Source: an uncultured Gemmatimonadales bacterium
GTDB lineage: Bacteria > Gemmatimonadota > Gemmatimonadetes > Longimicrobiales > Longimicrobiaceae
NCBI GenBank assembly: GCA_963716255.1
Contig: OY970303.1
Location: 640,001-704,000, forward strand
Length of the DNA stretch: 64,000 nt
Direction: 5' to 3'
Positions 5,649-47,022 of the stretch are shown piece by piece. The translations under genes were made by a program, and so were the position numbers. A model generated the notes under the pieces. That model had not been told where the DNA came from, did no database searches, and was given only the letters and a program-made list of their open reading frames with translations. Every line of letters begins with the position of its first letter. Positions within the stretch are counted from its first letter, which is position 1.

Positions 5649-5783
5649 GCGTGAGGGATTACGGCCCGAAGGGGCGAGACCCGGCGGCAGTTTGCCGGGG
5701 CTCGACTCCGTTACGCACGGTTGTTTCGTGCGTTACGGAGCCGAAGCCCGACCCCGGCGCCAGCCGGGGGCACGCCCGAACCC
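5649..5783 (+). repeat. Family A multi-hairpin repeat (subtype A1)
   Basis: GCGTGAGGGAT...GAGAC-stem-GGCAGTTT-stem-GGCTC...CTCCGTT-stem-TACGGAG...GGGGGCACGCCC, repeated across the window. Confidence 0.9.
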
Positions 5784-5805
5784 GCCGTAGCCGTTCACGA
5801 GCCGT

Positions 5806-6804
5806 TCAGTTGGTGAGGGCGTCGCGGTACCGGCTCCAGTCGTCCAGCACCGTCCCGGCGCCGCGCACCACCGTGGTGAGCGGGTCCTCGTCGATGCGCA
5901 CGGGAAGGCGCGTCTCCTCGGAGAACAGCGCCCCCAGACCGCGCAGCTGCACCCCGCCGCCGGTCATCACGATCCCCTCGTCCACGATGTCGGAGGAAAG
6001 CTCCGGGGGGGTGACCTCCAGCGCCTGCCGCACGCCGGTGGTGATGGCCTGCAGCGGCTCGCGCAGGCAGTCGCGGATCTCCTGCGAGTTGACCCACACG
6101 GTCTTCGGGAAGCCGGAGACCAGGTCGCGCCCCTTGACCTCCATCTCGTGCTCGGAGCCGTTGGGGTAGGCGGAGCCGATGCCGATCTTGACCGCTTCGG
6201 CGGTGGCCTCGCCCACCAGCAGGTTGTGGCTGCGGCGGATGAAGGCGACGATCAGCTCGTCCAGGTCCTGCCCCGCCACGCGGATGGACACGTTGGCGAC
6301 GATCCCGGAGAGCGCCACCACCCCGATCTCGGTGGTCCCCCCGCCGATGTTCACCACCATGCACCCCTTGGGCGTGGTGACGGGGAGCCCGGCGCCGATG
6401 GCGGCGGCGATGGGCTCGGAAAGCATGAACACCTGCCGCGCCCCGGCGGCGATCACCCCCTCGCGCACTGCGCGCCGCTCCATCTCGGTGATGCCGGAGG
6501 GAATGGTGATGAGTACGCGCGGCTTGACGCGCAGGCGCCGCCGCGGGAGAACGCGCTGCAGGAAGTGCCGCAGCATGAGGTCCACGCGGTCCACGTCCGC
6601 GATCACCCCGCCGCGCATGGGGCTCACGGCCAACACGCTGTCCGGGGTGCGCCCCAGCATCCGCTTTGCCTCCAGCCCCACGGCGAGCACCTTGCCGGTG
6701 GAGCGCTCCATCGCCACCACCGAGGGCTCGTTGATCACGATTCCCTCGCCGCGGACGTGGATCAGGGTGTTTGCGGTCCCGAGATCGATCGCGATGTCTG
6801 CCAT
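5806..6804 (-). CDS. mreB: rod shape-determining protein MreB-like actin homolog (orphan paralog)
   Basis: IAIDLGTANT, NEPSVVA, EPIAAAIGAGLP, NIGGGTTE, TPPELSSDI and MTGGG motifs; no mreC/mreD adjacent. Confidence 0.9.
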   Translation of the reverse strand: MADIAIDLGTANTLIHVRGEGIVINEPSVVAMERSTGKVLAVGLEAKRMLGRTPDSVLAVSPMRGGVIADVDRVDLMLRHFLQRVLPRRRLRVKPRVLITIPSGITEMERRAVREGVIAAGARQVFMLSEPIAAAIGAGLPVTTPKGCMVVNIGGGTTEIGVVALSGIVANVSIRVAGQDLDELIVAFIRRSHNLLVGEATAEAVKIGIGSAYPNGSEHEMEVKGRDLVSGFPKTVWVNSQEIRDCLREPLQAITTGVRQALEVTPPELSSDIVDEGIVMTGGGVQLRGLGALFSEETRLPVRIDEDPLTTVVRGAGTVLDDWSRYRDALTN

Positions 6805-6902
6805 TTCACTTCAGGTGTGTGCTGTGGACTGCGAGCGCCGCCCGGCGGGGCGGGCGCCTGGATGCGGGCGGAGGCGCGACGGCGCGCGGGCCGGAAACGG
6901 CG

Positions 6903-6955
6903 AAAAGCCGCCGGCGGCCCTCCCCGCGGCCAGGGGGAGGGAGCTCGCTGGCGGC
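6903..6955 (-). terminator. intrinsic terminator of the proximal riboswitch
   Basis: Minus strand GCCGCCAGCG..CCCTCCCC-loop-GGGGAGGG..CGCCGGCGGC-TTTT; the 5' arm is the aptamer 3' strand. Confidence 0.7.
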
Positions 6956-7035
6956 TCGGCTGGCGTAGCGGGTGGTTCCCGCCGTAGCCCCGTGGCTCTG
7001 CGCCACCGCCTTTCGACGGCTTCGCCCTTTTCAGC
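6947..7035 (-). ncRNA. c-di-GMP-I (GEMM-I) riboswitch aptamer, G20 type
   Basis: Minus strand GCTG-AAAAG-G-GCGAA-GCCGTC-GAAA-GGCGGT-GGCGC-A-GAGCCACGGGGCTAC...TACGCCAGCCGAGCCGC-CAGC: P1, GNRA-capped P2, A47 and P3 match the GEMM-I layout. Confidence 0.85.
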
Positions 7036-7100
7036 TTCGCGTATGGATCGTCCGACGGCACCGCGGCGAGCGCCGCGCGGGAGGGACCGGCCGGGCGGGG

Positions 7101-7144
7101 AAAAAGAATAGCCGCCAGCGCCGATCTCTCGGAATGCTGGCGGC
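7101..7144 (-). terminator. intrinsic terminator of the distal riboswitch
   Basis: Minus strand GCCGCCAGC-ATTCCGAGAGATCGGC-GCTGGCGGC-TATTCTTTTT; the 5' arm is the aptamer 3' strand. Confidence 0.8.
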
Positions 7145-7225
7145 CAGGCGAGCGTGGCGGGCGCGGCCCGCGGTAGCTCCGTAGCTCTGCGTCCCCGCCT
7201 TTCGGCGGGTTTGCTCTTTGCAGCA
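7135..7225 (-). ncRNA. GEMM-I riboswitch aptamer, A20 variant (c-AMP-GMP/3'3'-cGAMP-type)
   Basis: Minus strand TGCTG-CAAAG-A-GCAAA-CCCGCC-GAAA-GGCGGG-GACGC-A-GAGCTACGGAGCTAC...CCTGGCCGC-CAGCA; the base before GCAAA (position 7215) is A. Confidence 0.85.
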
Positions 7226-7283
7226 CCGCCGCCCCACCGGGGGCGTCCGGGATATGTGCCGTACTGTCACCGACTTGATCCGG

Positions 7284-7313
7284 AAGGTAGCCGCTCCGGA
7301 CGGGGTCCGTCAA
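7284..7313 (-). promoter_or_regulatory. putative sigma70 promoter for the riboswitch-mreB leader
   Basis: TTGACG (7313-7308)-N18-TACCTT (7289-7284). Confidence 0.45.
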
Positions 7314-7332
7314 CCCGGTGGGCGCGGCGCGC

Positions 7333-8598
7333 TCACGCCCGCGCGCCCACCGGGAGCGGTGCGGCGTCCGCGGCCTCCGAGCCGTGGGCCGCGCCCACCC
7401 GCCGCGAGGCCAGAAAGACCAGCGCCGCCATGACGGCGACGACGGTCGCCAGCGAGCGCGGGGTGCCGTCGTACAGCGACCCGGCCGCGAAGCCGGTGAG
7501 CGCGCTCCCCGCGGTCTGCAGGCTCCCCATCAGCGAGGAGGCCACCCCGGCCAGCCGGCCGTGCGGGGCCATGGCCCCGGCGGTGGCGTTGGGCTGTACC
7601 AGCCCGATCCCCAGCATGTAGGCCATCATGGGGAGGAGCACCCCCGCCGCGCCGCCGGTCCCCGTCCAGGCGGCGAGCAGCAGCGCCGCGCCGGCGGCGA
7701 GCACCAGCAGGGCGCCGCGGCGGAGCAGCGCGTCCGGGGCGTGGCGGGCGAGCAGGGCCCGGTTGAGCGCCGCCCCCGCCATCATGGAGCCGGCGGTGAG
7801 GGCGAACAGCAGGCCGAAGCGCTGCCGCGGCACGCCGAAGCCGTCGATGAAGACGAAGGGCGAGGCGCTGACGTAGGCGAACATCCCCGCGTAGGCGAAG
7901 CAGGTCGCCCACAGGTGGGCGCGCCCCGCCCGGTGCCGCAGCACGGCGCCGTAGGCGGCCAGCACCGCGCCGGGGCCGCCCTCCGCCGCGTGCCCGGCGG
8001 GGAGCGATTCCGGGAGGCCGCGCCAGCTCGCCAGCGAGAGCGCGGCCCCGGCCGCGCCCAGCACCAGGAAGATGGCGTGCCACCCCAGGTGCACCAGCAC
8101 GTACCCGCCCAGCGTGGGCGCCACCAGCGGCGCGGCCACCATCACCACGGTGACCTGCGACAGCACCGCCGCGCCCTCCCGCGCCCCGAAGCGGTCGCGG
8201 ATCACCGCCCGCGCCAGGATGGGGCCCACGCTGGCGCCCATCCCCTGGACGAGGCGGCAGGCGACCAGCACCGGGAGCGACCCGGCGGCCGCGCACGCGA
8301 GCCCCGCCGCCGTGAACAGCGCCAGCCCGCCCAGCAGCACGGGGCGGCGCCCCACGCGGTCGGAGAGCGGGCCGCAGACCAGCTGCCCCGCCGCGTACCC
8401 CGCCAGGAACAGGCTGAGGGTGAGCTGCACCGCCGCCACGTCCGCCCCGAAGACGCCCTGCAGCTGCGGCATCGCGGGGAGCGACATGTCGATGGCCAGG
8501 GCAGTCATCCCCGTGAGCGCCGCCAGCAGCAGCGCCAGCCCCCTCCCCCGCCGCGGTCGCGTCGCGGCGTCCCCCCCGTGCTCGGCTTCCTGCTTCAC
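7333..8598 (-). CDS. Bcr/CflA-family MFS multidrug efflux transporter
   Basis: AIDMSLPAMP, GPLSDRVGRRPVL and APTLGG motifs; about 12 hydrophobic segments. Start (GTG 8598) uncertain. Confidence 0.88.
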   Translation of the reverse strand: MKQEAEHGGDAATRPRRGRGLALLLAALTGMTALAIDMSLPAMPQLQGVFGADVAAVQLTLSLFLAGYAAGQLVCGPLSDRVGRRPVLLGGLALFTAAGLACAAAGSLPVLVACRLVQGMGASVGPILARAVIRDRFGAREGAAVLSQVTVVMVAAPLVAPTLGGYVLVHLGWHAIFLVLGAAGAALSLASWRGLPESLPAGHAAEGGPGAVLAAYGAVLRHRAGRAHLWATCFAYAGMFAYVSASPFVFIDGFGVPRQRFGLLFALTAGSMMAGAALNRALLARHAPDALLRRGALLVLAAGAALLLAAWTGTGGAAGVLLPMMAYMLGIGLVQPNATAGAMAPHGRLAGVASSLMGSLQTAGSALTGFAAGSLYDGTPRSLATVVAVMAALVFLASRRVGAAHGSEAADAAPLPVGARA

Positions 8599-8620
8599 TC
8601 CACCATCCACGTGCCTGTGC

Positions 8621-8652
8621 AAAAAAAACGAGACCCCACCCGTGGGGCCCTC
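8621..8652 (-). terminator. intrinsic terminator after the DoxX gene
   Basis: Minus strand GGGCCCCAC-GG-GTGGGGTCTCG followed by T8. Confidence 0.7.
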
Positions 8653-8702
8653 CCACCTGCAAGGCGCGGGCGCGCCCGCGCGGACACGCCCGCCGCCCGG
8701 AT

Positions 8703-9143
8703 CTAGCGAGTCCGGCCGCGCAGCACGCGCGCGTCCAGGCTGTGGGGCCCGCCGCCGTTGCCGGCGAAGTAGGCCCACACCAGCGCGTAGAGCAGCGCCA
8801 GCTCGCCGCCGTTGGCGATGGGCGCGGCGCCCTGCGACGCGTGAGCCATGAAGTACGCGGCCACCATCTGCAGCGCCAGCACCGCCGCCACCGGCCGCGT
8901 CAGCAGCCCCAGCACCATCAGCAGCCCGCCGACCAGCTCCAGCACCCCCGCGAGCCCCATCATGCTCACCAGCTCGGCGGTGGCGCCCGGCTGCCCGCCG
9001 AAGCCGCCGAACGACCCGAACAGCTTCTGCGCGCCGTGCTGCATGAAGAGCAGCCCCGCGCCCACCCGCAGCACGGTGTGCAACGCCCACGCGAGCGTGC
9101 TCCGCCCGTACGACGCCGATGCGGGATTCGCGAAATCCGCCAT
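8703..9143 (-). CDS. DoxX family membrane protein
   Basis: LRVGAGLLFMQHGAQKLFG, LGLLTRP, NGGELA and GPHSLD motifs; AGAGGA RBS. Confidence 0.88.
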   Translation of the reverse strand: MADFANPASASYGRSTLAWALHTVLRVGAGLLFMQHGAQKLFGSFGGFGGQPGATAELVSMMGLAGVLELVGGLLMVLGLLTRPVAAVLALQMVAAYFMAHASQGAAPIANGGELALLYALVWAYFAGNGGGPHSLDARVLRGRTR

Positions 9144-9212
9144 GAGTCCTCTCCTGTCCGTGAGCCCTGGAGCCGAAGCGCGCGGCACGCCTGACGCCCC
9201 GCGCGAGTGCGC

Positions 9213-9236
9213 ATTTATCTTAGCACAGAGATAAAT
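9213..9236. promoter_or_regulatory. putative transcription-factor operator (perfect inverted repeat)
   Basis: ATTTATCT-N8-AGATAAAT, AT-rich, in the divergent doxX/malQ intergenic region. Confidence 0.6.
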
Positions 9237-9340
9237 CCATCGCAAGGGCCGCCGGGCACTTCCCTTGCGACGGCGACGGCCCGCACCGTCCCCCTCCGGG
9301 CGGGGCCGCCCCCTCCACACCACCCCTGTTTTCCGGGATC

Positions 9341-11497
9341 GTGATGCAGAAGCAGTCGCCCCTGCACGACCTCGCCGACCTCGTCGGCATCGTCCCCAGC
9401 TACGTGGACCAGGCGGGCACCGAGACGCGCCTCGCCTCCGACGAGACTCGCGCCGCCATCCTGCGCGCCATGGGGATCGACGCCTCCACGCCGGAGTCGG
9501 CCCGCCAGGCGCTGGAGGACATGCGGGCCCGGGAGCGGGCGCGCGTGGTCGCCCCGGTGCGGGTGGTGCGCCGCTGCGACCCGGACGCCGCGCGGGTGGA
9601 GCTGCGGGTGCCGGGGTATGCCGCCGGCGACGCGGAGTGGAGCGTGGAGCTGGTCCCGGAGCGGGGCGAGCCCCGGCGCCTTTCCGGCACGGCTCGGCCG
9701 GAGCGAGATGGATCAGTGGCGGTGGAGCTGGGCGAGCCGCCCCCGGAGGGGTACCACCGGCTGCGCGTGTCGGTGCGCGCCGGCGGCGGGGAGCACGGCG
9801 GCGAGCAGGCGCTCGTCGTGGTGCCGGACGCCTGCCCCGCGGTGACGGAGGTCGCGGGGCACGAGCGCGTGTTCGGCGTCATCGCCAACCTGTACACGGT
9901 GCGCAGCGCGCGGAACTGGGGGGTGGGCGACCTGTCCGACCTGGGCGCGCTGCTGGAGTGGACGGCGGAGGTGGGCGGCGCCTTCGTGGGCGTCAACCCG
10001 CTGCACGCGCTCCGCAACGCCGGGGCCGACGTGAGCCCCTACAGCCCGGTGAGCCGCCTCTTCCGCAACCCCATCTACCTGGACGTGGAGGCGGTGCCGG
10101 AGCTGACGGAGAGCGGCGAGGCGCGGCGGATGCTGGAATCGGACGCGCTGCGCCGGGAGCGCGAGGCGCTGCGGGCGAGCGACCGGGTGGAGTACGAGCG
10201 GGTGATGGCGCTGAAGCGGCGCGTGCTGGCCGTGCTGCACCGCGAGTTCGCCGCCCGCCACGCCGCCTCGGAGAGCGGGCCCGGCCGGGCGTACCGGGAC
10301 TACGTGCGGGAGCAGGGCGAACCGCTGGAGGCATTCGCGACCTTCGAGGCGCTGGCCGACGCGCTGGGCACGGGGAACTGGCGGGAGTGGCCGGAGCGCT
10401 TCCGCGATCCCGCCTCCCCCGCGGTCGCGGCCTTCCGGGCAGAAAAGGAGGCGGCGGTGGACTTCAACCGCTGGCTCCAGTGGGAGCTGGACCGCCAGCT
10501 GGGGGAGGCGGCGGCGCGGGGCGGGCGCGCGGGGCTGACGGTGGGCCTGTACCAGGACCTGGCGATCGGCACCTCGGGGAGCAGCGCGGACGTGTGGGCG
10601 AACCCGCGCCTCTTCCTGCCGGGGGCGAGCATCGGCGCGCCGCCGGACGACTATTCCGCGAGCGGTCAGAACTGGGGCCTCCCGCCCATCGACCCGCGCG
10701 CGCTGCGGGAGGACGGCTACCGCTACTGGACCGCGCTGGTGCGCTCCTGCATGCGGCACGCGGGGGCGCTGCGCATCGACCACGCGGTGGGCCTCTTCCG
10801 CCAGTTCTGGATCCCGGAGGGGATGGACGGCGCGCGGGGAGCCTTCGTGCGCCTCCCGGCGGACGACCTGCTGGGGATCCTGGCGCTGGAGGCCCGGCGG
10901 CATGGGGCGCTGGTGGTGGGCGAGGACCTGGGGACGGTGCCCGCGGACGTACCGCCCGCCATGCACGCGCGCGGCGTGCTGTCGTCGCGCGTCTTCTACT
11001 TCGAGCGCGAGGGCGACGCCTTCCGCGCCGCCGCGGAGTACGAGCCCATGGCGCTCGCCACCGCCAACACGCACGACATGCCCTCGCTGGCCGGCTTCTG
11101 GGCCGCGCGCGACGTGGACCTCAAGCGCGAGGTGGGCCTGATCGGCGGCGACGAGGCCGCCGACCAGCAGCGCGGCGCCCGCCTGCGCGAGCGCCGCGCC
11201 ATCCTGGAGCGCCTCGCCGCCGACAGCTCCCTCCCCGCCGCGGAGGAGCCCGCCTCCCCCGCAGAGCTGCGCGGCGCGGTGCACGACTTCCTCTGCCGCA
11301 CCCCCGCCGCGCTGGTGGGCTTCAGCCTGGACGACCTGGTGGGCGAGGTGGAGCCGGTGAACCTCCCCGGCGTGCCGCCCGACCGCTTCTCCTCCTGGAC
11401 CCGCAAGCTGGCGACGCCCGTCGAGGCCCTCGCCACGGACCCGGACGTGCGCGCGGCGCTGCGGTGCGGAGACAGGGGAACGGAAGTGCGGGAGTGA
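9341..11497 (+). CDS. malQ: 4-alpha-glucanotransferase (amylomaltase, GH77)
   Basis: SPYSPVSR, YQDLAIG, GAPPDDY, GQNWGLPP, LRIDH, GEDLG and THDMP motifs. Confidence 0.95.
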   Translation: MMQKQSPLHDLADLVGIVPSYVDQAGTETRLASDETRAAILRAMGIDASTPESARQALEDMRARERARVVAPVRVVRRCDPDAARVELRVPGYAAGDAEWSVELVPERGEPRRLSGTARPERDGSVAVELGEPPPEGYHRLRVSVRAGGGEHGGEQALVVVPDACPAVTEVAGHERVFGVIANLYTVRSARNWGVGDLSDLGALLEWTAEVGGAFVGVNPLHALRNAGADVSPYSPVSRLFRNPIYLDVEAVPELTESGEARRMLESDALRREREALRASDRVEYERVMALKRRVLAVLHREFAARHAASESGPGRAYRDYVREQGEPLEAFATFEALADALGTGNWREWPERFRDPASPAVAAFRAEKEAAVDFNRWLQWELDRQLGEAAARGGRAGLTVGLYQDLAIGTSGSSADVWANPRLFLPGASIGAPPDDYSASGQNWGLPPIDPRALREDGYRYWTALVRSCMRHAGALRIDHAVGLFRQFWIPEGMDGARGAFVRLPADDLLGILALEARRHGALVVGEDLGTVPADVPPAMHARGVLSSRVFYFEREGDAFRAAAEYEPMALATANTHDMPSLAGFWAARDVDLKREVGLIGGDEAADQQRGARLRERRAILERLAADSSLPAAEEPASPAELRGAVHDFLCRTPAALVGFSLDDLVGEVEPVNLPGVPPDRFSSWTRKLATPVEALATDPDVRAALRCGDRGTEVRE

Positions 11498-11693: not shown

Positions 11694-11850
11694 CGGACGC
11701 CAGCGCGAGCCCCGCGTGAGGGATTTCGGCCCGAAGGGGCGAGACCCCGCGGGCAGTTTCGCGGGGGCTCGACTCCGTTGCAAACGGTAGTATCGTTTGC
11801 TACGGAGCCGAAGCCCGACCCCGGCGCCAGCCGGGGGCACGCCCGAACCC
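11694..11850 (+). repeat. Family A multi-hairpin repeat (A1) with 5' extension CGGACGCCAGC
   Basis: Aligns with the 5649 copy, with compensatory stem changes. Confidence 0.9.
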
Positions 11851-14140: not shown

Positions 14141-14293
14141 GGGCTCGGGCGTGCCCCCGCTGGCGCGGGGTCGGGCTGCGGCTCCGTAGCAGACGAAACT
14201 ACCGTCTGCAACGGAGGCGAGCCCCGGGAAACCGCCCCCGGGTCTCGCCGCTTCGCGCTCGCATCCCTCACGCGGGCACCCTGCTGGCGTCCG
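14141..14293 (-). repeat. Family A multi-hairpin repeat (subtype A2)
   Basis: Reverse complement aligns with family A. Confidence 0.9.
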
Positions 14294-16517: not shown

Positions 16518-16590
16518 TGGAGCGTATCGGGATCGAACCGATGACCTCCGCCTTGCAAAGGCGGCGCTCTCCCAGCTGAGCTAACGCCCC
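16518..16590 (-). tRNA. tRNA-Ala(TGC)
   Basis: GGGGCGTTAGCTCAGCTGGGAGAGCGCCGCCTTTGCAAGGCGGAGGTCATCGGTTCGATCCCGATACGCTCCA folds as a cloverleaf; anticodon TGC; G3:U70 pair; 3' CCA not encoded. Confidence 0.97.
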
Positions 16591-20673: not shown

Positions 20674-20831
20674 GGGTTCGGGCGTGCCCCCGGCTGCGCC
20701 GGGGTCGGGCTGCGGCTCCGTAACGCACGATACGACCGTGCGTAACGGAGGCGAGCCCCGGTGGAAACAGCCCCGCCGGGTCTCGCCGCTTCGCGCTCGC
20801 ATCCCTCACGCGGGCACCGCGCTGGCGCCCG
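20674..20831 (-). repeat. Family A multi-hairpin repeat (A2)
   Basis: Reverse complement aligns with family A. Confidence 0.9.
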
Positions 20832-20841
20832 CGAGGGTGGA

Positions 20842-20892
20842 CCCCCTCACCCCCTGGCCCCCCTCTCCCCCGCAAGCGGGGGAAAGGGGGAG
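20842..20892. repeat. Family C REP-like palindrome
   Basis: CCCCCTCACCCCC...CCCTCTCCCCCGCAAGCGGGGGAAAGGGGGAG. Confidence 0.75.
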
Positions 20893-20991
20893 AACGGCAC
20901 GGCGTCGTTGCCTTCAGCGCGCGTTCCCCTGACCCGCGCAAAGACGAGCGCCCCCAACCGGGATCCCCCGGTGAGGGCGCTTTTCGCAGTC

Positions 20992-21120
20992 GCGTGAGGG
21001 ATTACGGCCCGAAGGGGCGAGACCCGCGGGCAGTTTCGCGGGGCTCGACTCCGTTAGCGAGCGTTGTTTGCTCGCTTACGGAGCCGAAGCCCGACCCCGG
21101 CGCCAGCCGGGGGCACGCCC
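20992..21120 (+). repeat. Family A multi-hairpin repeat (A1)
   Basis: Aligns with the 5649 copy; H3 stem AGCGAGC/GCTCGCT. Confidence 0.9.
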
Positions 21121-23586: not shown

Positions 23587-23732
23587 GGCGTGCCCCCGCT
23601 GGCGCGGGGTCGGGCTGCGGCTCCGAAACGCACGATAAAACTGTGCGTAACGGAGGCGAGCCCCGCGAAACTGCCCGCGGGTCTCGCCGCTTCGCGCTCG
23701 CATCCCTCACGCAGGCATCGTGCTGGCGTCCG
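23587..23732 (-). repeat. Family A multi-hairpin repeat (A2)
   Basis: Reverse complement aligns with family A. Confidence 0.9.
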
Positions 23733-23737
23733 TGAGG

Positions 23738-23871
23738 CCCCCCACCCCGGCGCTGCGCGCCACCCCTCCCCCGCAAGCGAGGGAGGAGACGACCGCACAG
23801 AGTCCAGCAGTTAGCCCCCTCTCCCAGAATTGGAAGAGGGTGGCGAGCCTCAAGCGAGCCGGGTGAGGGCC
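23738..23871. repeat. two family C REP-like palindromes
   Basis: 23738-23789 resembles the reverse complement of 11635-11687; 23815-23871 resembles the reverse complement of 11555-11611. Confidence 0.8.
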
Positions 23872-26359: not shown

Positions 26360-26410
26360 GGGTCGGGCGTGCCCCCGCTGGCGCGGGGTCGGGCATCGCG
26401 CTGGCGTCCG
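26360..26410 (-). repeat. Family A repeat, internally deleted copy
   Basis: 5' extension CGGACGCCAGCGCGATGCCCG joined directly to ACCCCGCGCCAGCGGGGGCACGCCC. Confidence 0.8.
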
Positions 26411-27801: not shown

Positions 27802-27970
27802 GCCGTTCGCAGTTCCCGCAGTACCCCTCGAATCTTCTGCGGAGGGAGACTCACGCGGCTGTTTGCGTGAGGCTCCCGGAGCCGGAGCGGAGACAGCCGG
27901 GCAGTTTCGGCTGGCTCCGCGACCCGCGCAGGAGACGGACAGTAGTATCGTCCGGCTCCGGAGCGGACCC
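27802..27970 (+). repeat. Family B triple-hairpin repeat
   Basis: Three GAGAC-stem-loop-stem-GGCTC units; homologous to 42430-42595. Confidence 0.85.
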
Positions 27971-29066: not shown

Positions 29067-29200
29067 GGGCGTGCCCCTCGCTGCCGCTCGGGTCGGGCTG
29101 CGCGCTGCGTAGAGAACGAGACTACCGTTCCCAACGCAGCCGAGCCCCGCGGAAACAACCCCGCGGGTCTCGGCCCTGCCGGGCGCGCATCCCTCACGCG
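29067..29200 (-). repeat. Family A multi-hairpin repeat (divergent subtype)
   Basis: Same layout; the base of H3 is CTGCG/CGCAG instead of CTCCG/CGGAG. Confidence 0.85.
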
Positions 29201-40238: not shown

Positions 40239-41714
40239 ATGAGCCTGCGCAAGCGGATCGTCCTCAGCCTGGCGCTCATCTCCTGCATCCTGGTGGCGCC
40301 CGCCGCCTACGGCGTGCTGTCGCTGAGGGCGCTGCAGGACGTGGCGCGCACCCTCCGCTTCCGCGCCGCGGAGGCCTCGCTGACGCTGGGGCAGCTGCAG
40401 CGGGCACTTTCCGAGGTGGAGTACGCCGAGCGGGTGTACCTGGCGTTCCCGTCGGGGGAGCAGGCAGCGGTTGCGCGGCAGGGGGTGGAAACGAGCCTGG
40501 CCCGCGTGGACACGGCGCTCACCAACCTGCGCAGCGCCGGCTTCGCCGCGCAGGTCCGGCCCACCGGGCATCGCTGGGTGGAGCTGAAGGCGGCCATCCA
40601 GCAGGCGAACGCGCTCGCCGGCTCCGGGCAGGTGGAGCTGGCGGACACCTTCCGGGTCCGGGAGCTGGAGCCCCGCTTCGCCGCGGTGATCGGGACGCTG
40701 CCGCCCATCGGCCAGGCGATCGACAGCGCGAGCCAGGCGCAGGTGGCCCGCGCGGAGGAGATCGCCACGCGCGCGGTCACCACCACCGGGCTGGCGCTGG
40801 CGGCGGCGCTGGCGCTGACGGTGCTGATCGGCGGGTGGCTGACGCGCACGCTGCTGCGGCCCATCCACGAGCTGCGCCGGGGGATGGCGGTGGTGGCGGA
40901 GGGCGACTTCACGCCGGACGTGCGGGTGAACTCGCGCCGCGAGGACGAGCTGGGCGACCTGGCGCGCTCCTTCGACTCCATGACGCGGCAGCTGTCGGAG
41001 CTGGACCGGCTCAAGGCCGAGTTCGTGTCCGTGGCCTCGCACGAGATCAAGACCCCGCTCAGCGTCATCCGCGGCTACACCGCGCTGCTTCTGGACGGGA
41101 TCTACGGCCAGGTGTCGGACCCCCAGAAGAAGACGCTGGCCTCCATCTCCGACCAGACGGACCGGCTCACCCGCCTGGTGCAGCGCCTGCTGGACATCAG
41201 CCGGTTCGAGGCGGGGGGCGGGAGGCTGGAGCTGCGGGAGATCCCGCTCCGCTTCTTCCTCAACGACCTGGCGCACGGCTTCGACGCGCTGGCGATCCAG
41301 AACCGCATCGACTTCGCGATGGAGATCGCCGCGGACCTCCCCGAGAGCATGACCGGCGACCCGGACCGGCTCAACGAGGTGCTGGGCAACCTGCTCTCCA
41401 ACGCCTTCAAGTTCACTCCCCAGGGCGGGCAGATCCGACTGGTGGCGATGCCCGCGCCGGACGGCCTGGTGATCGAGGTGCGGGACACGGGAATCGGCAT
41501 CGCGGCGGACAAGCTCCCCAAGATCTTCGAGAAGTTCTTCCAGGTGGAGAACGAAGCGCAGCCGCGGTCGGTGGGGTCGGGGCTGGGGCTGGCGATCGCG
41601 CAGGAGATCGTGGATGCCCACGGAGGCACGATCACTGCAGAGAGCCAGGTGGGCCGGGGGACGACCTTCCGCGTCATCCTCCCGCTGCGGCCGCCGGTGG
41701 CGAGCGCGGCCTGA
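40239..41714 (+). CDS. membrane sensor histidine kinase (2 TM, HAMP, HisKA, HATPase)
   Basis: DELGDLARSF, ASHEIKTPL, NLLSNAFKFT and GSGLGL motifs. Confidence 0.93.
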   Translation: MSLRKRIVLSLALISCILVAPAAYGVLSLRALQDVARTLRFRAAEASLTLGQLQRALSEVEYAERVYLAFPSGEQAAVARQGVETSLARVDTALTNLRSAGFAAQVRPTGHRWVELKAAIQQANALAGSGQVELADTFRVRELEPRFAAVIGTLPPIGQAIDSASQAQVARAEEIATRAVTTTGLALAAALALTVLIGGWLTRTLLRPIHELRRGMAVVAEGDFTPDVRVNSRREDELGDLARSFDSMTRQLSELDRLKAEFVSVASHEIKTPLSVIRGYTALLLDGIYGQVSDPQKKTLASISDQTDRLTRLVQRLLDISRFEAGGGRLELREIPLRFFLNDLAHGFDALAIQNRIDFAMEIAADLPESMTGDPDRLNEVLGNLLSNAFKFTPQGGQIRLVAMPAPDGLVIEVRDTGIGIAADKLPKIFEKFFQVENEAQPRSVGSGLGLAIAQEIVDAHGGTITAESQVGRGTTFRVILPLRPPVASAA

Positions 41715-41739
41715 CCCGAATCCCAAAGACCGACCGTTG

Positions 41740-42351
41740 ATGAAGCCGACCCGAGGGCTCGTTTTCCTGCTCGCCCTGTTCCTCGCGGCGTGCGCCACGC
41801 TCGCGCCGGGCTCCGGCGGCCGCGAGGGGAAGCGCCTGTGGACCGAGGCGCACCTCGCGCTGCGCGCCGAGAACTTCCGCGCTGCGGACTCGCTCTTCAC
41901 CCGCCTGGCCACGGCCCACCCGCGCACCGAGGAGGGCCACGAGGCGCTCTTCTTCCTGGGCGAGATGCGCATGGATCCGCGCAACCCCGGGTGGAACTCG
42001 CGCCTTGCGGCGGACTACCTGCGCCGCTACCTGGCGCCGGGCGACTCGTCGCCGCGCGCCGAGATCCACCGCCAGCCGGAGGCGAACACCTTCCTGGAGC
42101 TGGCCAACCAGCTCAACCTCCCCGCCGGCCAGCGCATCGGCGCGCTCCAGCCGGGAACCCCGGTCGAGGTGCGCCCGCCGGCGGCCGCGCCGGTCCCCCA
42201 GCGCGTGGTCCCCAGCGAGGAAGCGGCCGCACTGCGGGTGGAGATCGAGCGGCTCCGCGCGCAGGTGGCCGAGCGCGACGAGACGATCCAGCGGCAGCGC
42301 GACGAGCTGAACCGCATCCGCAACACCCTGGCCCCGGGGCGACGGCCGTAG
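41740..42351 (+). CDS. lipoprotein with TPR-like helices and C-terminal coiled coil
   Basis: MKPTRGLVFLLALFLAAC lipobox; EIERLRAQVAERDETIQRQRDELNRI coiled coil. Confidence 0.78.
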   Translation: MKPTRGLVFLLALFLAACATLAPGSGGREGKRLWTEAHLALRAENFRAADSLFTRLATAHPRTEEGHEALFFLGEMRMDPRNPGWNSRLAADYLRRYLAPGDSSPRAEIHRQPEANTFLELANQLNLPAGQRIGALQPGTPVEVRPPAAAPVPQRVVPSEEAAALRVEIERLRAQVAERDETIQRQRDELNRIRNTLAPGRRP

Positions 42352-42387
42352 GGAACGGCGAGGGAAGAGGGAACAGCCTGCAACGAC

Positions 42388-42429
42388 AACGGCGCCCCCA
42401 CGGGAAGATCCCGGTGGGGGCGCCGTTTT
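42388..42429. terminator. hairpin (family D), probable terminator
   Basis: AACGGCGCCCCCAC...GTGGGGGCGCCGTTTT. Confidence 0.6.
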
Positions 42430-42595
42430 GCCGTTCGCAGTGTCGTCGTACCCATATGCTTCTGTACGGGGGGAGACTCGCCGGCTGTTTGGCGAGGCTC
42501 ACCCCGGCGAGGTGAGACAGCCGGGCAGTTTCGGCTGGCTCGCCGAGCCCGCGGAGGAGACCGGTGGCTGTATCGCCGGGCTCCGGAGCGGCCCG
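42430..42595 (+). repeat. Family B triple-hairpin repeat
   Basis: Homologous to 27802-27970; middle hairpin GAGACAGCCGGGCAGTTTCGGCTGGCTC is identical. Confidence 0.85.
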
Positions 42596-42614
42596 CCTCC
42601 ACGCAAAGAAACCC

Positions 42615-44693
42615 TCAGCCCACGTGGAAAAGACGTGCTCGCTCCCCGTAGCGGGTCTCCAGCGCCTCCCGCAGCCGTGGATGCTTTTCCAGCTCCGGGT
42701 CCGCGTCCACGATGGCACGCGCCTCGCCGCGGGCACGGGTGAGCAGCGCCTCGTCCTTTTCCAGGTCGGCGAAGCGGAAGCTGGGGAGCCCCGACTGGCG
42801 GGCCCCGAACAGGTCGCCCTGGCCGCGGAGCCGCATGTCCGCCTCGGCGATGGCGAAGCCGTCCTCGGTGGAGGCGAAGATCCTCAGCCGCTCGGCCGCC
42901 TCGGCGCCGCCCGCCAGCAGGATGCAGAAGCTTTCCGCCACGCCGCGCCCCACCCGGCCGCGAAGCTGGTGGAGCTGCGACAGGCCGAAGCGCTCGGCGT
43001 GCTCGATCACCATCACCGACGCGTTGGGGACGTCGATCCCCACCTCGATCACGGTGGTGGCCACCAGCACGTCGATCTCGCCGGCGGCGAAGGCGCGCAT
43101 GGCGGCATCCTTTTCCTCGCTCGGCATCTGCCCGTGAAGCAGCCCCACGCGCAGGTCGGGGTAGACCTGGGCGCGAAGCAGCTCCCACTCCTCCGTGGCG
43201 GCCTTGAGGTCGGTCTTCTCGGACTCCTCCACCAGCGGGTAGACGACGTACGCCTGCCGCCCCGCCTCCACCTGCTCGCGGACGAACCCCAGCACCCGGG
43301 TGCGCGCGGACTCCGGCCGCAGCGCGGTGCGCACCGGCTGGCGCCCCGGCGGGCGCTCGTCCAGGATGGACACGTCCAGGTCGCCGTACAGCGTCAGCGC
43401 CAGCGAGCGCGGGATGGGCGTGGCGGACATCACCAGCACGTCGGGATTACTCCCCAGCTCGGAGAGCGCCATGCGCTGCTTCACCCCGAAGCGGTGCTGC
43501 TCGTCCACCACCACCAGCCCCAGCCGCGCGAACTGCACCCCCTCCTGGATCAGCGCGTGGGTCCCCACCGCGATCCCCGCCTCCCCCGAGGCGATGCGGT
43601 ACGCGACCTCGCGGTACTGCTTCGCCCCCAGCCGCCCGGTGAGCAGCGTCACCCCCACCGGCAGGTCGCCCAGCAGCTTCGTCAGCGTGCGCGCGTGCTG
43701 CTCGGCCAGGATCTCGGTGGGGGCCATGAGCGCCGCCTGGTAGCCGTTCTCCACCGCGCGCAGCATGGCGAACAGAGCGACCACCGTCTTGCCGGAGCCC
43801 ACGTCGCCCTGGAGCAGGCGGTTCATCCGCCGCGTCTGGCCCATGTCCTCGCCGATCTCCTTGAGCACCCGCACCTGCGCGCCGGTGAGCGCGAAGGGGA
43901 GCCGCCCGTAGAACGGGCGCACCAGCGTGTCCCGCCGCTCGAAGGCGATCCCCGGCCGCTCCACGGTGGCGCGGTGGCGCGACTGGGCGTGCAGGATCTG
44001 GAGGAAGAGAAGCTCCTCGTACGCGAGCCGGCGCCGCCCCTGCTCGGCCTCGGCGAGGGAGGCGGGACGGTGCAGCAGGTCCAGCGCGCGGGGGAGCGGC
44101 GGCAGGTCGTGCCGGGCCAGCATCTCCGCGTCCAGCATCTCCTCGTCCGCGGCGGAGCGAAGCAGCCCGTCCAGGTTCTCGGCGACCAGCGCGCGGATCT
44201 GGCGGTGCGAGAGGCCTTCGGTGGTGGGGTAGATGGGGAAGATGGCGCCCGACTCCTCGTCGGCCTCCTCGCCCTCCTTCGCCAGCTGCGTGAACTCCTT
44301 GGGCTGCAGCTGCCGGCCGTGGAAGAAGCGCACGGTGCCGGAGACCAGGAGCAGGTCGCCCTTCTGGATCACCCGGTCCAGGAAGGGCTGCCCCGGCCAG
44401 GAGCACTCGATGAGGCCGGACGAGTCGCGGATCACCGCCTGGAAGATGCGCAGCCCCTTGCGCGTGGGGATCACGCCCTTGGACACCACCCGCCCGATGA
44501 CGTTTGCCTCCATCCCCGCCTCCAGCACGCCGATGCGCTGGATGGTGGACGCGTCCTCGTAGCGGCGCGGGACGTGGAAGAGCACGTCGCGCGCGGTGAG
44601 GAGCCCCATCTTCTGCAGGAGCCCCGCGCGGCGCGGGCCGACGCCCTTGAGGAACTGGACGGGACGGTCGAGGTCGGAGTAGGCCGTGGTCAT
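42615..44693 (-). CDS. recG: ATP-dependent DNA helicase RecG
   Basis: LKGVGP, QGDVGSGKT, DEQHRFGV, MSATPIPR and QLHQLRGRVGRG motifs. Confidence 0.97.
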   Translation of the reverse strand: MTTAYSDLDRPVQFLKGVGPRRAGLLQKMGLLTARDVLFHVPRRYEDASTIQRIGVLEAGMEANVIGRVVSKGVIPTRKGLRIFQAVIRDSSGLIECSWPGQPFLDRVIQKGDLLLVSGTVRFFHGRQLQPKEFTQLAKEGEEADEESGAIFPIYPTTEGLSHRQIRALVAENLDGLLRSAADEEMLDAEMLARHDLPPLPRALDLLHRPASLAEAEQGRRRLAYEELLFLQILHAQSRHRATVERPGIAFERRDTLVRPFYGRLPFALTGAQVRVLKEIGEDMGQTRRMNRLLQGDVGSGKTVVALFAMLRAVENGYQAALMAPTEILAEQHARTLTKLLGDLPVGVTLLTGRLGAKQYREVAYRIASGEAGIAVGTHALIQEGVQFARLGLVVVDEQHRFGVKQRMALSELGSNPDVLVMSATPIPRSLALTLYGDLDVSILDERPPGRQPVRTALRPESARTRVLGFVREQVEAGRQAYVVYPLVEESEKTDLKAATEEWELLRAQVYPDLRVGLLHGQMPSEEKDAAMRAFAAGEIDVLVATTVIEVGIDVPNASVMVIEHAERFGLSQLHQLRGRVGRGVAESFCILLAGGAEAAERLRIFASTEDGFAIAEADMRLRGQGDLFGARQSGLPSFRFADLEKDEALLTRARGEARAIVDADPELEKHPRLREALETRYGERARLFHVG

Positions 44694-44815
44694 GCGCCGG
44701 GACGGCGGCGCACGGCGGCGATGCGGTCCGAAGAGGAGGATGTAGGTTTCGGCATCATGCCGCGTAGATTCCGCAGGTGCGTCGTACTTCCACGTCCAGA
44801 ACCGGAACGAGGCAG

Positions 44816-45427
44816 ATGATCCGTCCCGTCCATCTTGCGAGCTTCGCGCTCCTTGCCGCGTGCGGCGGCACCGCTCCGGCCGCCGATTCCGTCCGCTCCA
44901 CCGGCGCCGCATCCCCGGCGGCCATCTTGGAAGACACCCTGATCCGTCCGGCCGCGGTCCCCGGCCACTTCCGGCTGCTGGACAGCCTATCGGCCGACGT
45001 GGACGGCGACGGCGCCCGCGAGCGCGTGGAGCTCGCCGCCGTGGTCGGGGTGGACGACCAGGGCCGTTTCCAGTGGGACGACGGCCAGGAGTGGCTGGTC
45101 GCCGTGCGCGACGGCGCCGACACGTATCCGCTGCTGCGCGAGCACCTTCACTGGGGCTCGGCAGCCTTCTGGATCGTCGACGGCGATTCCGCCGCTCCCC
45201 CCGCGATCCTGGTGCTGACGGAAATGATGCAGTACCCCCACGCCGGCACGCGCATGCAGAAGTACGTCTTCGACCGCTCGCGCGGCGGGTACGTGCGGAT
45301 CGGCTCCGTCGACGCACATGGCGATCTCACCCGGTACCGCGGCCCGCCGCCCGAATCCGGCCTATCTCCCTCGTTCCGTCCGTATTCCGGCCATCCACCT
45401 AAACCCTACAATCCGCCCGACCCCTGA
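44816..45427 (+). CDS. hypothetical lipoprotein
   Basis: MIRPVHLASFALLAAC lipobox; DVDGDG Ca-binding-like motif; WDDGQEW. Confidence 0.7.
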   Translation: MIRPVHLASFALLAACGGTAPAADSVRSTGAASPAAILEDTLIRPAAVPGHFRLLDSLSADVDGDGARERVELAAVVGVDDQGRFQWDDGQEWLVAVRDGADTYPLLREHLHWGSAAFWIVDGDSAAPPAILVLTEMMQYPHAGTRMQKYVFDRSRGGYVRIGSVDAHGDLTRYRGPPPESGLSPSFRPYSGHPPKPYNPPDP

Positions 45428-45497
45428 TCCGTCGGGCAGGTCGCGAGGCCAGGACGGCGTGGGAACTGTCTGCCACGCGCCTTGATGCGGAGGTCCC

Positions 45498-45788
45498 TCA
45501 CAGAGGACGCGCATCGCGGAGCACGTACTGGCGAAGCTCCGGCCGGAGCGCGACCTCCTCGACCACGTCCACCCGGCGACCGAGCAGCTCCTCCAGATCA
45601 TTGACGAGGCCGCCGGGGAACCAGGGGCTGACCTTGTCGCCCGCGTCGATCAGCAGGTCCACGTCGCTGTCGGGGCCGGCCTCGCCGCGCACGACGGAGC
45701 CGAACACGCGCACGTTGTACGCGCCGTGCCGCTCGGCGATGCGCAGGATCTCGGCCCGCTTCTGTCGGACAACGTATTCGATGCTCAT
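45498..45788 (-). CDS. minimal nucleotidyltransferase (MNT/MntA-like antitoxin)
   Basis: VRVFGSVVRGEAGPDSDVDLL and LEELLGRRVDVV motifs. Confidence 0.9.
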   Translation of the reverse strand: MSIEYVVRQKRAEILRIAERHGAYNVRVFGSVVRGEAGPDSDVDLLIDAGDKVSPWFPGGLVNDLEELLGRRVDVVEEVALRPELRQYVLRDARPL

Positions 45789-45849
45789 GCAAGCCTCGCT
45801 CGTGTGCGCCGATCCCTCCGAACACCTCCCGAAATGTAATCCGTTCCCG

Positions 45850-46779
45850 CTACGCCGTCAGCACTTCCTCGGCGAAGGTCGCGATCTCGAACGGCTCCAG
45901 GTCGCCGATGGCCTCGCCCACGCCGATGAACTTGACCGGGAGGTCGAACTCCTCCTTGAGCGCGACCACGATCCCGCCCTTGGCCGTGCTGTCCATCTTG
46001 GTGAGGATGATGCCGGAAAGCGGCACCTCCTGCTGGAAGGCGCGCACCTGCGCCATGGCGTTCTGGCCCACGGTGGAATCCAGCACGATCAGCGTCTCGT
46101 GCGGCGCGCCGGGGAGCTTCTTGGACACCACGCGCTGCACCTTTTCCAGCTCCTTCATCAGCCCGGACTGCGTGTGCAGGCGCCCCGCAGTGTCGATGAT
46201 GAGCACGTCCGCCCCGCGCTGCTCCGCCGCTTCCAGCGCGTCGAAGGCCACGGCGGCGGGGTCGCGCCCCGGCTCGCTCCCCACGAAGTCGCACCCCACG
46301 CGCTCCGACCAGCGGCGCAGCTGCTCGATGGCCCCCGCGCGGAAGGTGTCGCCCGCGGCGATCATCACCTTGCGCCCGGACCGCGTGAGGCGGTGGGCCA
46401 GCTTTCCGATGCTGGTGGTCTTCCCCACCCCGTTCACGCCCACCACCAGCAGCACCGTGGGGCCGCCCTCGAAGTTGAAGCGGAGCGCCGTGTCCGACTT
46501 CCCCCTGGAAAGGATCTCCACGATCTCCTCCTGCACCGCCTGCTGGAAGTCGCGCTGGGTGCGGACCATGCCGCGCTCCGCCAGCGTTTCCACGGCGCCC
46601 ACCATCCTGAGCGTCGCGGGAACGCCGAAGTCGGCGCCGATCAGCACCTCCTCCAGCCGCTCGAGCGAGCCCTCGTCCATTCCCTGCACCAGCACCGTGA
46701 CGTCGGTGAGTGCAAAGTCGACGATCTTGTCCCACAGGGACTTGCGCCCCTCCTCCTTCTTCCTGAAAAGACGAGCCAT
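45850..46779 (-). CDS. ftsY: signal recognition particle receptor FtsY
   Basis: GVNGVGKTT, DTFRAGA, DTAGRL and TKMDSTAKGG motifs. Confidence 0.96.
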   Translation of the reverse strand: MARLFRKKEEGRKSLWDKIVDFALTDVTVLVQGMDEGSLERLEEVLIGADFGVPATLRMVGAVETLAERGMVRTQRDFQQAVQEEIVEILSRGKSDTALRFNFEGGPTVLLVVGVNGVGKTTSIGKLAHRLTRSGRKVMIAAGDTFRAGAIEQLRRWSERVGCDFVGSEPGRDPAAVAFDALEAAEQRGADVLIIDTAGRLHTQSGLMKELEKVQRVVSKKLPGAPHETLIVLDSTVGQNAMAQVRAFQQEVPLSGIILTKMDSTAKGGIVVALKEEFDLPVKFIGVGEAIGDLEPFEIATFAEEVLTA

Positions 46780-46871
46780 GGTCTCGGTTCTGTCGTAATT
46801 CGTGATCCGCGCCGGCTCCTGTACCCCGTACCTGTGGGCGAGTGCGCGGGTGCGGAATGAGAAGCCCGCGA

Positions 46872-47022
46872 TTCGGGCGTGCCCCCGGCTGCGCCGGGGT
46901 CGGGCTGCGGCTCCGTAGCAAACGATACTACCGTTTGCAACGGAGGCGAGCCCCGCCAAACTGCCGGCAGGTCTCGCCGCTTCGCGCTCGCATCCCTCAC
47001 GCGGGCATCGCGCTGGCGTCCG
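46872..47022 (-). repeat. Family A multi-hairpin repeat (A2)
   Basis: Reverse complement aligns with family A. Confidence 0.9.

Follow-up and report, generated by a model that had tools for sequence, protein, structure and literature searches.

A dispersed branched repeat of a Longimicrobiaceae genome, probably folding as single-stranded DNA, lies at the centre of a strand-specific G bias

Intergenic spaces in a 64,000-nucleotide stretch of the genome of an uncultured Gemmatimonadales bacterium (the window; contig OY970303.1, positions 640,001 to 704,000) hold copies of one structured repeat, here called family A, which raises the question of whether DNA or RNA is folded and of how such a repeat is multiplied. 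A sequence-only reading of the window had listed eight full and two partial copies, all intergenic, with four covarying hairpins in each full copy, and had proposed a mobile element of the REP/REPIN kind. All eight full copies were recovered between genes called in the present analysis, with CM scores of 125-153 bits (Table 1). Both partial copies are present as well, but they are other than supposed: at 1035 an IS481-family insertion has split a full copy, whose 5′ end is seen here and whose 3′ part lies about 290 bases before the window start, while the copy at 26360 is a deletion form with the upstream linker fused to H4. The genome-wide count proposed by the earlier reading yielded about 800 copies, 799/800 of them intergenic as in the window, and the optional upstream linker precedes 434/800.

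Table 1. Family A and family C repeats and an inserted element in the window (the names hrcA-like and dnaJ-like were taken from reading of the translations).
Feature	Position	Strand	Remark
IS481-family element	1..1034	-	inserted in a copy just after GAGAC of H2
5′ part of IS-split family A copy	1035..1066	-	3′ part at genome 639608-639708
Family A full copy	5649..5776	+	
Optional upstream linker of the 11714 copy	11694..11713	+	
Family A full copy	11714..11843	+	
Family A full copy, TGCG subtype	14148..14273	-	linker follows to about 14294
Family A full copy, left member of back-to-back doublet	20681..20811	-	
Family A full copy, right member of doublet	20992..21119	+	G001 ortholog has different H2 and H3
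Family A full copy	23587..23712	-	between hrcA-like and dnaJ-like genes
Deletion form, direct fusion of linker to H4 and 3′ end	26361..26404	-	
Family C copy, three H2-type hairpins	27846..27958	+	
Family A full copy, rare subtype, perfect four-way junction	29068..29199	-	
Family C copy	42473..42583	+	
Family A full copy	46876..47002	-	linker follows to about 47023

Family A is a 128-base branched repeat with a three-way and a four-way junction. The four hairpins described earlier are there but do not stand free, the fold being closed: the motifs at either end are base-paired to one another, and H1-H3 are joined in the four-way junction by an additional, fifth helix, P2. This closed multibranch fold in place of a simple hairpin agrees with the earlier view of an architecture more complex than a simple REP, and the stem variants, loops and A.G and T.T mismatches described at the same time were found in the copies; the basal GGGAT...AGCCC is carried by 768/800. 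In an alignment of 30 sequences 99.1% of cells pair, both sides are changed in 14/38 pairs, and the covariation score was matched by 0/500 shuffles. The strong covariation claimed earlier holds as a score, but much of it is whole-hairpin exchange between copies rather than independent compensatory changes. Among 18 orthologous copy pairs in a sister genome, H3 was swapped in 13/18 and H2 in 12/18, and mutual information between H2 and H3 was 0.127 vs 0.108 ± 0.013 after shuffling (730 copies), for comparison with an arm by arm value of 2.75 in the same number of copies. H2 and H3 alleles assort almost freely, and stem sequences are rewritten within copies that keep their sites. Module exchange can produce strong covariation in multi-copy repeats, which should be read with this caution.

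The folded strand was assessed by its stability and its loops. Copies fold better than shuffled sequence, with RNA z values of -3.6 to -5.0 on the GCGTGAGGGAT strand. The H1 loop is GNA in 751/771 copies and the H4 loop GNA or GNNA in 637/706, GNRA being found in only 4. Loops of the GNA/GNNA type are far stabler in DNA than in RNA (PMC13037366). Because of strand and loop chemistry DNA is preferred over RNA as the folded form, and family A likely folds as single-stranded DNA. The selected single-strand fold proposed by the sequence-only reading is supported, by the pairing and by the covariation against 500 shuffles, with DNA favoured.

Copies are enriched in convergent spaces (263/577 vs 43/678 divergent), and in 533/799 cases the 3′ end of the copy is close to a stop codon, the median distance being 28-29 bases. 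Both orientations relative to genes occur, and replication-strand preference is weak (435/800). Opposite-strand pairs sharing one intergenic space are back to back in 61/61 cases; moreover, copies form mosaic clusters and serve as targets of IS elements. Among congeners the copy number ranges from 5 to 763, a spread of about 150-fold with genome-specific subtypes, and orthologous sites are filled in some relatives and empty in others, as would be expected of the REP-like dispersed element suggested earlier. Within the window, the copy at 23587..23712 is found in G001 with H2 and H3 swapped and is absent in G002, G006 and G008, while that at 29068..29199 is absent in G002, G004, G005, G006 and G008. 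REP, BIME and REPIN elements are intergenic, enriched in convergent spaces, arranged in inverted doublets and mosaic clusters, targeted by IS elements and accompanied by a RAYT (TnpA-REP) partner. Family A shares with REP/REPIN the intergenic position, high copy number, inverted doublets and presence or absence among relatives, but it lacks their GTAG/CTAG-type tetranucleotide foot (column profile, 798 copies), their simple hairpin and the RAYT partner.

Mobilisation by an HUH (RAYT) transposase, as suggested earlier, was not borne out: the single-contig genome (96.7% complete) gave no PF01797 match, and the called proteins showed no HUH signature. Among the bracketed genes listed, the search for a nuclease gene flanked by the motif yielded only a 5′-truncated DUF1016 gene, and this family is missing from 7/8 congeners, including the four with most copies. 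The cognate enzyme said to be lacking in the window was not found in the genome either. A DUF559 nuclease was rejected as partner, its gene being bracketed by the neighbouring family B instead. Two GIY-YIG matches and the single reverse transcriptase were rejected as well, no copy adjoining the loci checked (one of the GIY-YIG loci and that of the reverse transcriptase). A TrwC-type relaxase is absent from the genome, the 99 genes flanked by copies on both sides are ordinary by their N-termini, and MutL, PriA and ComEC are encoded, all of them near-universal. An autonomous form with an internal gene was discarded, as the six split copies inspected hold IS4-, IS481- and IS5-like transposases (family names from translations) with their own ends. 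A MITE or IS-derived element was also rejected: the sole terminal repeat is the 5-bp P1, the ISs inside copies have their own ends, and target duplication at copies was not above shuffles (94 vs 84-99 shuffled).

Around the copies the base composition is strand-specific. Silent sites 0.6-5 kb off, on both sides, hold 3-5 points more G than C on the folding strand. For all family A and C elements the shift was +2.85 points G at 0.8-3 kb, against 0.00 ± 0.21 (maximum 0.62) in 500 orientation shuffles and -0.32 to +0.07 in 16 position shifts; for isolated elements it was +4.4 (95/118 positive). The leading-strand effect in this genome is only 0.15, the shadow being about 20-30 times larger. Beyond about 0.8 kb the shadow has the same sign on both sides, in genes of both orientations and in both replichores; its profile is centred on the copies and decays by 6-10 kb, and within about 600 bases upstream of copies the G bias is absent or reversed. 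Family C casts the same strand shadow. Among repeats lying apart from A and C, family B and AGTGCG cast none (n = 30, 17 and 28 for C, B and AGTGCG repeats), and GGGAACAG retains a residual +2.3 ± 0.9. A raised mutation rate near copies was not seen, C/G divergence being flat with distance. GC-biased conversion was rejected as a cause, the apparent A+T deficit near copies having vanished against G002 orthologues.

Comparison of relatives links the shadow to the copies themselves. At orthologous sites the slope was 0.94 ± 0.27 in the present genome (G000) and -0.05 ± 0.28 in the element-poor G002. The difference G000 minus G005 was +0.67 ± 0.26 on G000 copies and, reciprocally, -1.30 ± 0.33 on G005 copies; for G000 and G002 the corresponding values were +1.25 ± 0.15 and -1.71 ± 0.56. 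The shadow tracks each genome's own copies in these two congeners. Copies of G008 gave no reciprocal effect (+0.18 ± 0.24; negative expected), and the difference for the outgroup G020 was 0.41 ± 0.30. In one Bacteroidia genome the polarity around 32 copies was the same and the effect weak (NNR G +3.3 ± 1.0).

DNA uptake sequences of Neisseria and Haemophilus are double-stranded signals of 9-12 bases without a fold, present in hundreds near gene ends. Like family A they occur in hundreds of copies at such places and could spread by biased DNA exchange; to our knowledge, no strand shadow is associated with them. In GRINS, too, nucleotide skew is tied to gene conversion (Nivina et al. 2021, PMC8256042). 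As described there, GRINS are repeated skewed stretches inside PKS genes, whereas family A is a short non-coding centre of mild skew in unique neighbour genes.

A likeness in structure was found with the Flavo-1 motif (Rfam RF01705; Weinberg et al. 2010, PMC2864571). In the available part of its alignment many rows start GCGYNAGGGAU and end AGCCCGACC, the near-invariant core is the same G-C/A.G/U-A helix as P2 of family A, and one row carries the GAC/GGC variant of family A H2. When these rows were compared by eye, the Flavo-1 basal helix NNGAU...AGCNN with its A.G mismatch corresponded to the basal motif of the 768 copies. Flavo-1 also has a high copy number and occurs in either orientation. 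Its inner rod with GGAAAUCC/GAU internal loops is replaced in family A by the four-way junction H1-H3, and family A adds P1 and H4. With the Rfam model of Flavo-1 the gathering threshold was not reached, and there was no match in the window, nor in G000 at E <= 1. The Rfam comparison suggested earlier gave no match to the repeat, whether run on the window, on the genome or on three plasmid regions. The consulted part of the Flavo-1 description states no plasmid link or skew.

A model built from the chromosomal repeats alone detected a full-length miniature in 13/13 plasmid regions examined, and BLAST with this miniature gave matches on 1,444 plasmids, mostly conjugative. The plasmid element is a smaller homologue of family A, unannotated on many conjugative plasmids and apparently new. 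In 5/5 regions with a relaxase or stb marker it lies on the presumed transferred strand, a polarity deduced from gene order that applies to the plasmid homologue and not to the chromosomal copies. On IncN-like plasmids the miniature is located inside direct repeats of 400-650 bp between stbABC and the replicon side, which is the position described for CUP regulons. It occupies the strand on which ssi, Frpo and pas signals act, that opposite the ssb, DUF932 and Kor-type genes. At 14 plasmid sites an upstream module is present, 14 bases of which also occur in the phiX174 F-G intergenic region, where pas lies; the repeat model had no match in that region. A search of phages gave no match. Family A differs from CUP, ssi, Frpo and pas in being chromosomal and 800-fold, in its longer H2 and H3 with GYNGTWT loops, and in lacking the upstream plasmid module (2 chance-level matches in G000). 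A description of the repeat, the plasmid miniature or such a shadow was not found in the open literature searched; the plasmid hairpin may have been marked before, in Delver and Belogurov 1997 or in the supplements of PMC11541004 and PMC12672017.

We propose, at a little under an even chance, that family A triggers polar repair, or polar gene conversion, of the opposite strand and so causes the G-over-C bias. The GCGTGAGGGAT strand, once single-stranded as incoming donor DNA or in a gap, would fold, and a host replication or recombination factor would recognise the G-C/A.G/Y-R helices and GNA mini-hairpins. The opposite strand would then have a nick or primer end and be the one that mismatch repair picks for excision over several kb. 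Because repair is far more efficient on G.G and G.T mispairs than on C.C and C.A, G would build up on the folding strand without extra total divergence. The same strand invasions would copy hairpins between sites and bring the element into empty intergenic sites, and it would therefore spread by conversion without a transposase of its own. The encoded MutL, PriA and ComEC fit this reading, though weakly, being near-universal. Such a reading needs an extra assumption for the near-field loss or reversal of the bias upstream of copies, and the A+T deficit that GC-biased conversion should leave does not appear in the comparison with G002. Tentatively, and with a chance somewhat below even, Flavo-1, the Longimicrobiaceae repeats and the plasmid element of more than a thousand plasmids may form one superfamily of single-stranded DNA signals, whose chromosomal form would be a selfish repair-directing element without an enzyme, spreading by polar gene conversion and, through a strand-specific repair bias, altering silent positions over a large part of the genome.

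That family A is a non-autonomous element of the REP/REPIN kind, for which a dedicated nuclease or transposase acts in trans and casts the shadow as a by-product of nicking, is unlikely but has several observations in its favour. The range of copy numbers and the genome-specific subtypes, the filled and empty sites and the invariably back-to-back doublets would fit it, and the bracketing of the DUF559 gene by family B indicates that such systems occur in this genome. Against it stand the lack of Y1/RAYT, the lack of a nuclease gene between copies save the truncated DUF1016 gene, the lack of target duplication, and the fact that copies are rewritten in place, not replaced.

It is quite unlikely that the host maintains the repeat as a fixed site of priming or replication restart (ssi/pas-like), at which repriming would give the opposite nascent strand a 5′ end and better its mismatch repair. 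The plasmid homologues in leading regions on the presumed transferred strand, the bases of the upstream module shared with phiX174 and the CCGAAGG mini-hairpin in H1, described for RSF1010 ssiA, would suit such a site, as would the near-field reversal, which reaches further upstream, the direction of primer extension. However, the shadow far exceeds the leading/lagging effect and is of the same size on the two replichores, repriming by itself would be expected to have no effect where the strand is already discontinuous, and congeners live with 5-40 copies.

A structured RNA, either a small non-coding RNA or a 3′-UTR element for mRNA stability or termination, is improbable. It would account for the strong pairing and the position near stop codons, and Flavo-1 was proposed as probably RNA. 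In the 533 stop-adjacent cases, however, the mRNA holds the less stable strand, the loops are of DNA type and not GNRA, copies occur in both orientations to genes, and the two-sided DNA skew independent of gene direction is left unexplained; matches to Flavo-1, sense or antisense and often outside transcripts (PMC9723704), also count against it. In three metatranscriptome contig sets, which show neither level, ends nor strand, copy depth was mostly some 5-100 times that of weakly covered neighbour genes; the 5′ end of the dnaJ-like gene was as deep as copies or deeper, and in a DNA run used for comparison copy depth was several hundred to a thousand times that of neighbours. Just as improbable is reversed causality, in which copies insert or survive in pre-existing skew domains of matching orientation: part of the G000-centred shadow appears in G008 (+0.70), whose own copies have none around them, and G000 bases are weakly predicted by G005 copies (+0.62), as are G005 bases by G000 copies (+0.39), but shared older copies can account for the cross terms, the profile is centred on copies and decays, it is absent at G002 orthologous sites, and other repeats of the same spaces cast none.

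The orphan Flavo-1 motif gains a concrete, testable identity as a probable single-stranded DNA signal, and with a homologue on E. coli laboratory plasmids its function can be assayed without culturing the host. The plasmid matches suggest that establishment regions of plasmids carry a widespread element so far left out of annotation. For the chromosome, the results indicate that a dispersed repeat can centre strand-specific base composition at the 5-kb scale, at 20-30 times the replichore effect, which bears on strand choice by bacterial mismatch repair and on analyses of codon usage and skew.

A profile built from the eight full copies of family A in the window, all of which were recovered where the sequence-only reading had placed them, yielded 886 matches across the 8.42-Mb genome, including 813 at full length. 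Both anchors were present in 800 copies with 736 distinct cores, and 799 of these 800 were located outside genes according to our own gene calls (5,438 genes). Two further window copies had been described as partial: the one at 1035 is actually a full copy interrupted by an IS481-type element, and the one at 26360 is a deletion form. Two 200-kb bins (genome 2.2-2.4 Mb and 5.0-5.2 Mb) contained no family A and the bin at 6.6-6.8 Mb contained only one copy; these bins are probably islands or giant synthase genes.

In the predicted structure the two ends of the element form the terminal helix P1 (5 bp), which closes a three-way junction with H4 and P2, and P2, composed of GGG, an A.G mismatch and TNCG, closes a four-way junction with the hairpins H1, H2 and H3. 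The A.G helix recurs in H2. An alignment of 30 copies from several genomes showed pairing in 99.1% of the cells and two-sided variation in 14 of the 38 pairs, and the observed covariation score was attained in 0 of 500 shuffles; P1 is invariant in this alignment and therefore uninformative on covariation. Among 730 parsed copies the T.T mismatch of H3 was present in 687, and the upper stem of H3 (7 bp, 33 alleles) was perfectly paired in 661.

The alleles of H2 and H3 were almost independent of each other (MI 0.127 versus 0.108 ± 0.013 when shuffled, 730 copies), and the two arms of H3 were locked together (MI 2.75 in the same copies). For the analysis of orthologous pairs, 18 of the 24 parsed copies of the sister genome were matched to a copy in the genome of the window, with flanks 91-98% identical. 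H3 had changed in 13 of these 18 pairs, every time on both arms, and H2 in 12; no site was found empty in the genome of the window. The paired H3 changes and the near-free assortment of H2 and H3 together indicate that the covariation stems from a pool of ready-paired alleles that pass between copies, a movement that we read as gene conversion.

Family A occupies 263 of 577 convergent and 463 of 2,495 co-directional intergenic spaces, and 43 of 678 divergent ones, where divergent gene pairs flank 43 copies. In 533 cases its 3′ end points towards the stop codon of a gene on the other strand, at a median distance of 28-29 bases, and in 223 cases towards a start. Of 800 copies, 558 have short words of the form GC[ACT]GT[TC] just past the 3′ end, compared with about 9% of control intergenic edges. 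The pattern was detected in all 8 congeners (5 to 591 matches each), with 155 matches in one genome of another genus and at least one match in 20 of 60 genomes of the host family, Longimicrobiaceae; outside the host family, a 300-genome sample of the phylum gave just 1-2 matches per genome, which look like chance. Filled and empty orthologous sites, a comparison suggested earlier, do exist: those at 23587 and 29068 are both filled in the sister genome, the former being empty in at least three other congeners and the latter in at least five. It is conceivable, if unlikely, that a dedicated transposase, as yet unnamed, moves family A; target duplications were looked for at its copies and none found, and the search for a cognate enzyme, raised by the likeness to elements mobilised by RAYT transposases, found none among the candidates tried, including Y1/RAYT, DUF559, GIY-YIG, DUF1016 and TrwC.

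Insertion sequences of the IS4, IS481 and IS5 types land in family A. Four IS4-type copies, found by their ends (genome 1756508, 2524971, 3672852 and 4230068), are all in the H2 loop, one of them with unequal target duplications. The IS481-type was seen at 8 sites, including window 1-1034, with all 8 left ends just after GAGAC of H2, and 4 of these belong to a derivative of roughly 280 bases or a variant like it. The single IS5-type copy (genome 7602881) is in the H3 loop. A DUF559 nuclease gene (genome 125110-125670) lies between inverted hairpins of family B, an arrangement resembling REP-RAYT with a different nuclease. A 5′-truncated DUF1016 gene was observed between two family A copies in direct repeat (genome 1596500-1597950), whose flanks are duplicated and whose H3 are identical and H2 unlike. 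Family B hairpins upstream of family A were gained or lost between the genome of the window and its sister. Families C and A form 26 mixed doublets, back to back, as though interchangeable, and another complex repeat family of about 38 copies (14-mer count) adjoins family B hairpins (genome 166595, 205088, 254106, 412583 and others).

Repeats and other features located in the window
Feature	Position in window	Strand	Remarks
Family A, full copies	cores 5649-5776 (+), 11714-11843 (+), 14148-14273 (-), 20681-20811 (-), 20992-21119 (+), 23587-23712 (-), 29068-29199 (-), 46876-47002 (-)		
Family B, examples	near 5600-5640, 20840-20900, 23740-23860		
Family C	27846-27958; 42473-42583		three tandem H2-type hairpins; 219 copies in genome
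c-di-GMP-I riboswitches, two in tandem	6947-7036; 7136-7225	-	upstream of mreB-like gene 5806-6804 (name read from translation)
tRNA gene	16518-16590	-	

The Rfam model of Flavo-1 (RF01705) has no match to family A, yet rows of the published Flavo-1 alignment have the two terminal motifs in common with it, as well as the A.G helix (PMC2864571). As a sequence, family A is a fresh variant of this orphan motif; by the model it is not a member of Flavo-1, and it belongs neither to REP-RAYT nor to the MITEs. The outer scaffold with different interiors was found at 10 of the 80 loci listed, in Bacteroidia, Treponema, Anaerobutyricum, Myxococcales and Demequina; one Bacteroidia genome has 191 copies and the Treponema has 2. 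A rarer variant of family A (genome 619816, 620016, 1510901 and 1512226), in which P2/H1 and the H3 base differ, is closer to the Myxococcales and Demequina copies than the main type is. The Demequina copy L200, on an 82-kb contig, adjoins a ParB-like gene, and its region is possibly a mobile element.

With one window copy as BLAST query, 141 plasmids were matched, 124 of them conjugative. The matches correspond to a 90-100-base miniature with the helix order of family A, a near-identical H1, A.G helices and mostly GNA-type loops. The miniature as query retrieved 1,444 plasmid records (1,301 conjugative; 1,074 at ≥80% of its length); phages gave no match. A covariance model (R2) built from Gemmatimonadota-labelled copies only found 23 full-length copies (29-66 bits, rough E ≤ 0.002) in every one of the 13 plasmid regions examined; on 40 kb of element-free outgroup sequence it had no hit below E 0.9. 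The regions were picked by BLAST and the first copy of each is plus by construction; the 10 further copies were all on the same strand as the first copy of their region. Five regions have a relaxase or stb marker, and in all 5 the copies occupy the strand inferred to be transferred; ssb, DUF932, Kor-type, methylase, ParB or radC neighbours were on the opposite strand in 10 of 13 regions, the three exceptions being an IncN copy amid same-strand genes right after stbC, a copy at repA and a copy at yacAB. Several miniature copies lie within 400-650-bp direct repeats at the CUP region position. A plasmid-type scaffold was also seen in NZ_MT732182.1 inside a DUF932/ParB/DUF736/RepA gene run, which we take to be typical of Tn4371-family ICEs. 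An upstream module, which family A lacks, is present at 14 plasmid sites, and one form has 14 bases in common with the phiX174 F-G intergenic region, presumably the location of pas. One paper describes pas as a hairpin (PMC5778457), and three others report single-strand promoters and priming sites working in plasmid regions such as those that carry the miniature (PMC11541004, PMC12672017, PMC7690428). That family A is a host repriming site appears improbable to us. No description of the plasmid homologue was found in the open-access papers searched; older plasmid papers may mark it.

A GNA triloop caps H1 in 751 of 771 parsed copies; of 706 H4 loops, 637 are GNA or GNNA and 4 are GNRA. Such mini-hairpins are far stabler as DNA than as RNA and occur at the single-strand signals of phage G4, RSF1010 ssiA and N4, according to a review (PMC13037366). 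Of 100 sampled copies, the GCGTGAGGGAT strand outfolded its complement in all 100 as DNA and in 96 as RNA. We infer that the fold is selected as single-stranded DNA of the GCGTGAGGGAT strand, and we regard an RNA role as very improbable.

At fourfold-degenerate sites the genes flanking family A carry a bias, given here after correction for gene position and codon context. Between about 0.6 and 3 kb from the element, the folding strand has 3-5 points more G than C, on both sides and in genes of either orientation, and this excess has faded by 6-10 kb; the upstream 600 bases are neutral or reversed. Pooled, this shadow was +2.85 versus 0.00 ± 0.21 in 500 shuffles, random orientations gave about zero beyond 1 kb, and isolated elements showed +4.4 (positive in 95 of 118). 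The leading-strand effect was 0.15, and replichore, subtype and the optional upstream linker did not affect the shadow. At NNR sites A was also reduced on the folding strand. Family C likewise casts a shadow (+5.5, +4.1), and none was seen, on small numbers, for family B and AGTGCG repeats that lie clear of A and C. A weak shadow of the same polarity was found around 32 copies in one Bacteroidia genome. At orthologous sites it was present in the genome of the window and its sister and absent in the congener G002, and it was reciprocal when the genome of the window was compared with G005 and with G002; the own copies of G008 showed none, and the outgroup gave a difference of 0.41 ± 0.30. The reverse causality, a skew preceding the copies, is held to be a slim prospect. 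Net C-to-G and A-to-G differences from G002 run in the direction of the shadow. Neither a gain in GC nor raised total C/G divergence was seen near copies, and the latter result fits a directional bias better than extra mutation. The G008 and outgroup results, the upstream 600 bases and the lack of a GC gain weigh against a shadow cast by the copies.

For a repeat tied to a strand-specific substitution bias over kilobases, no match was found in the open-access papers searched. The reading we favour, with a little less than even confidence, is that folded family A would act as a signal in single-stranded form, producing a discontinuity in the opposite strand and thereby directing mismatch repair and strand invasion; we infer each of these steps beyond the fold. 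Such a single process would account for the two-sided shadow without added divergence, the exchange of hairpins and the spread into empty sites.
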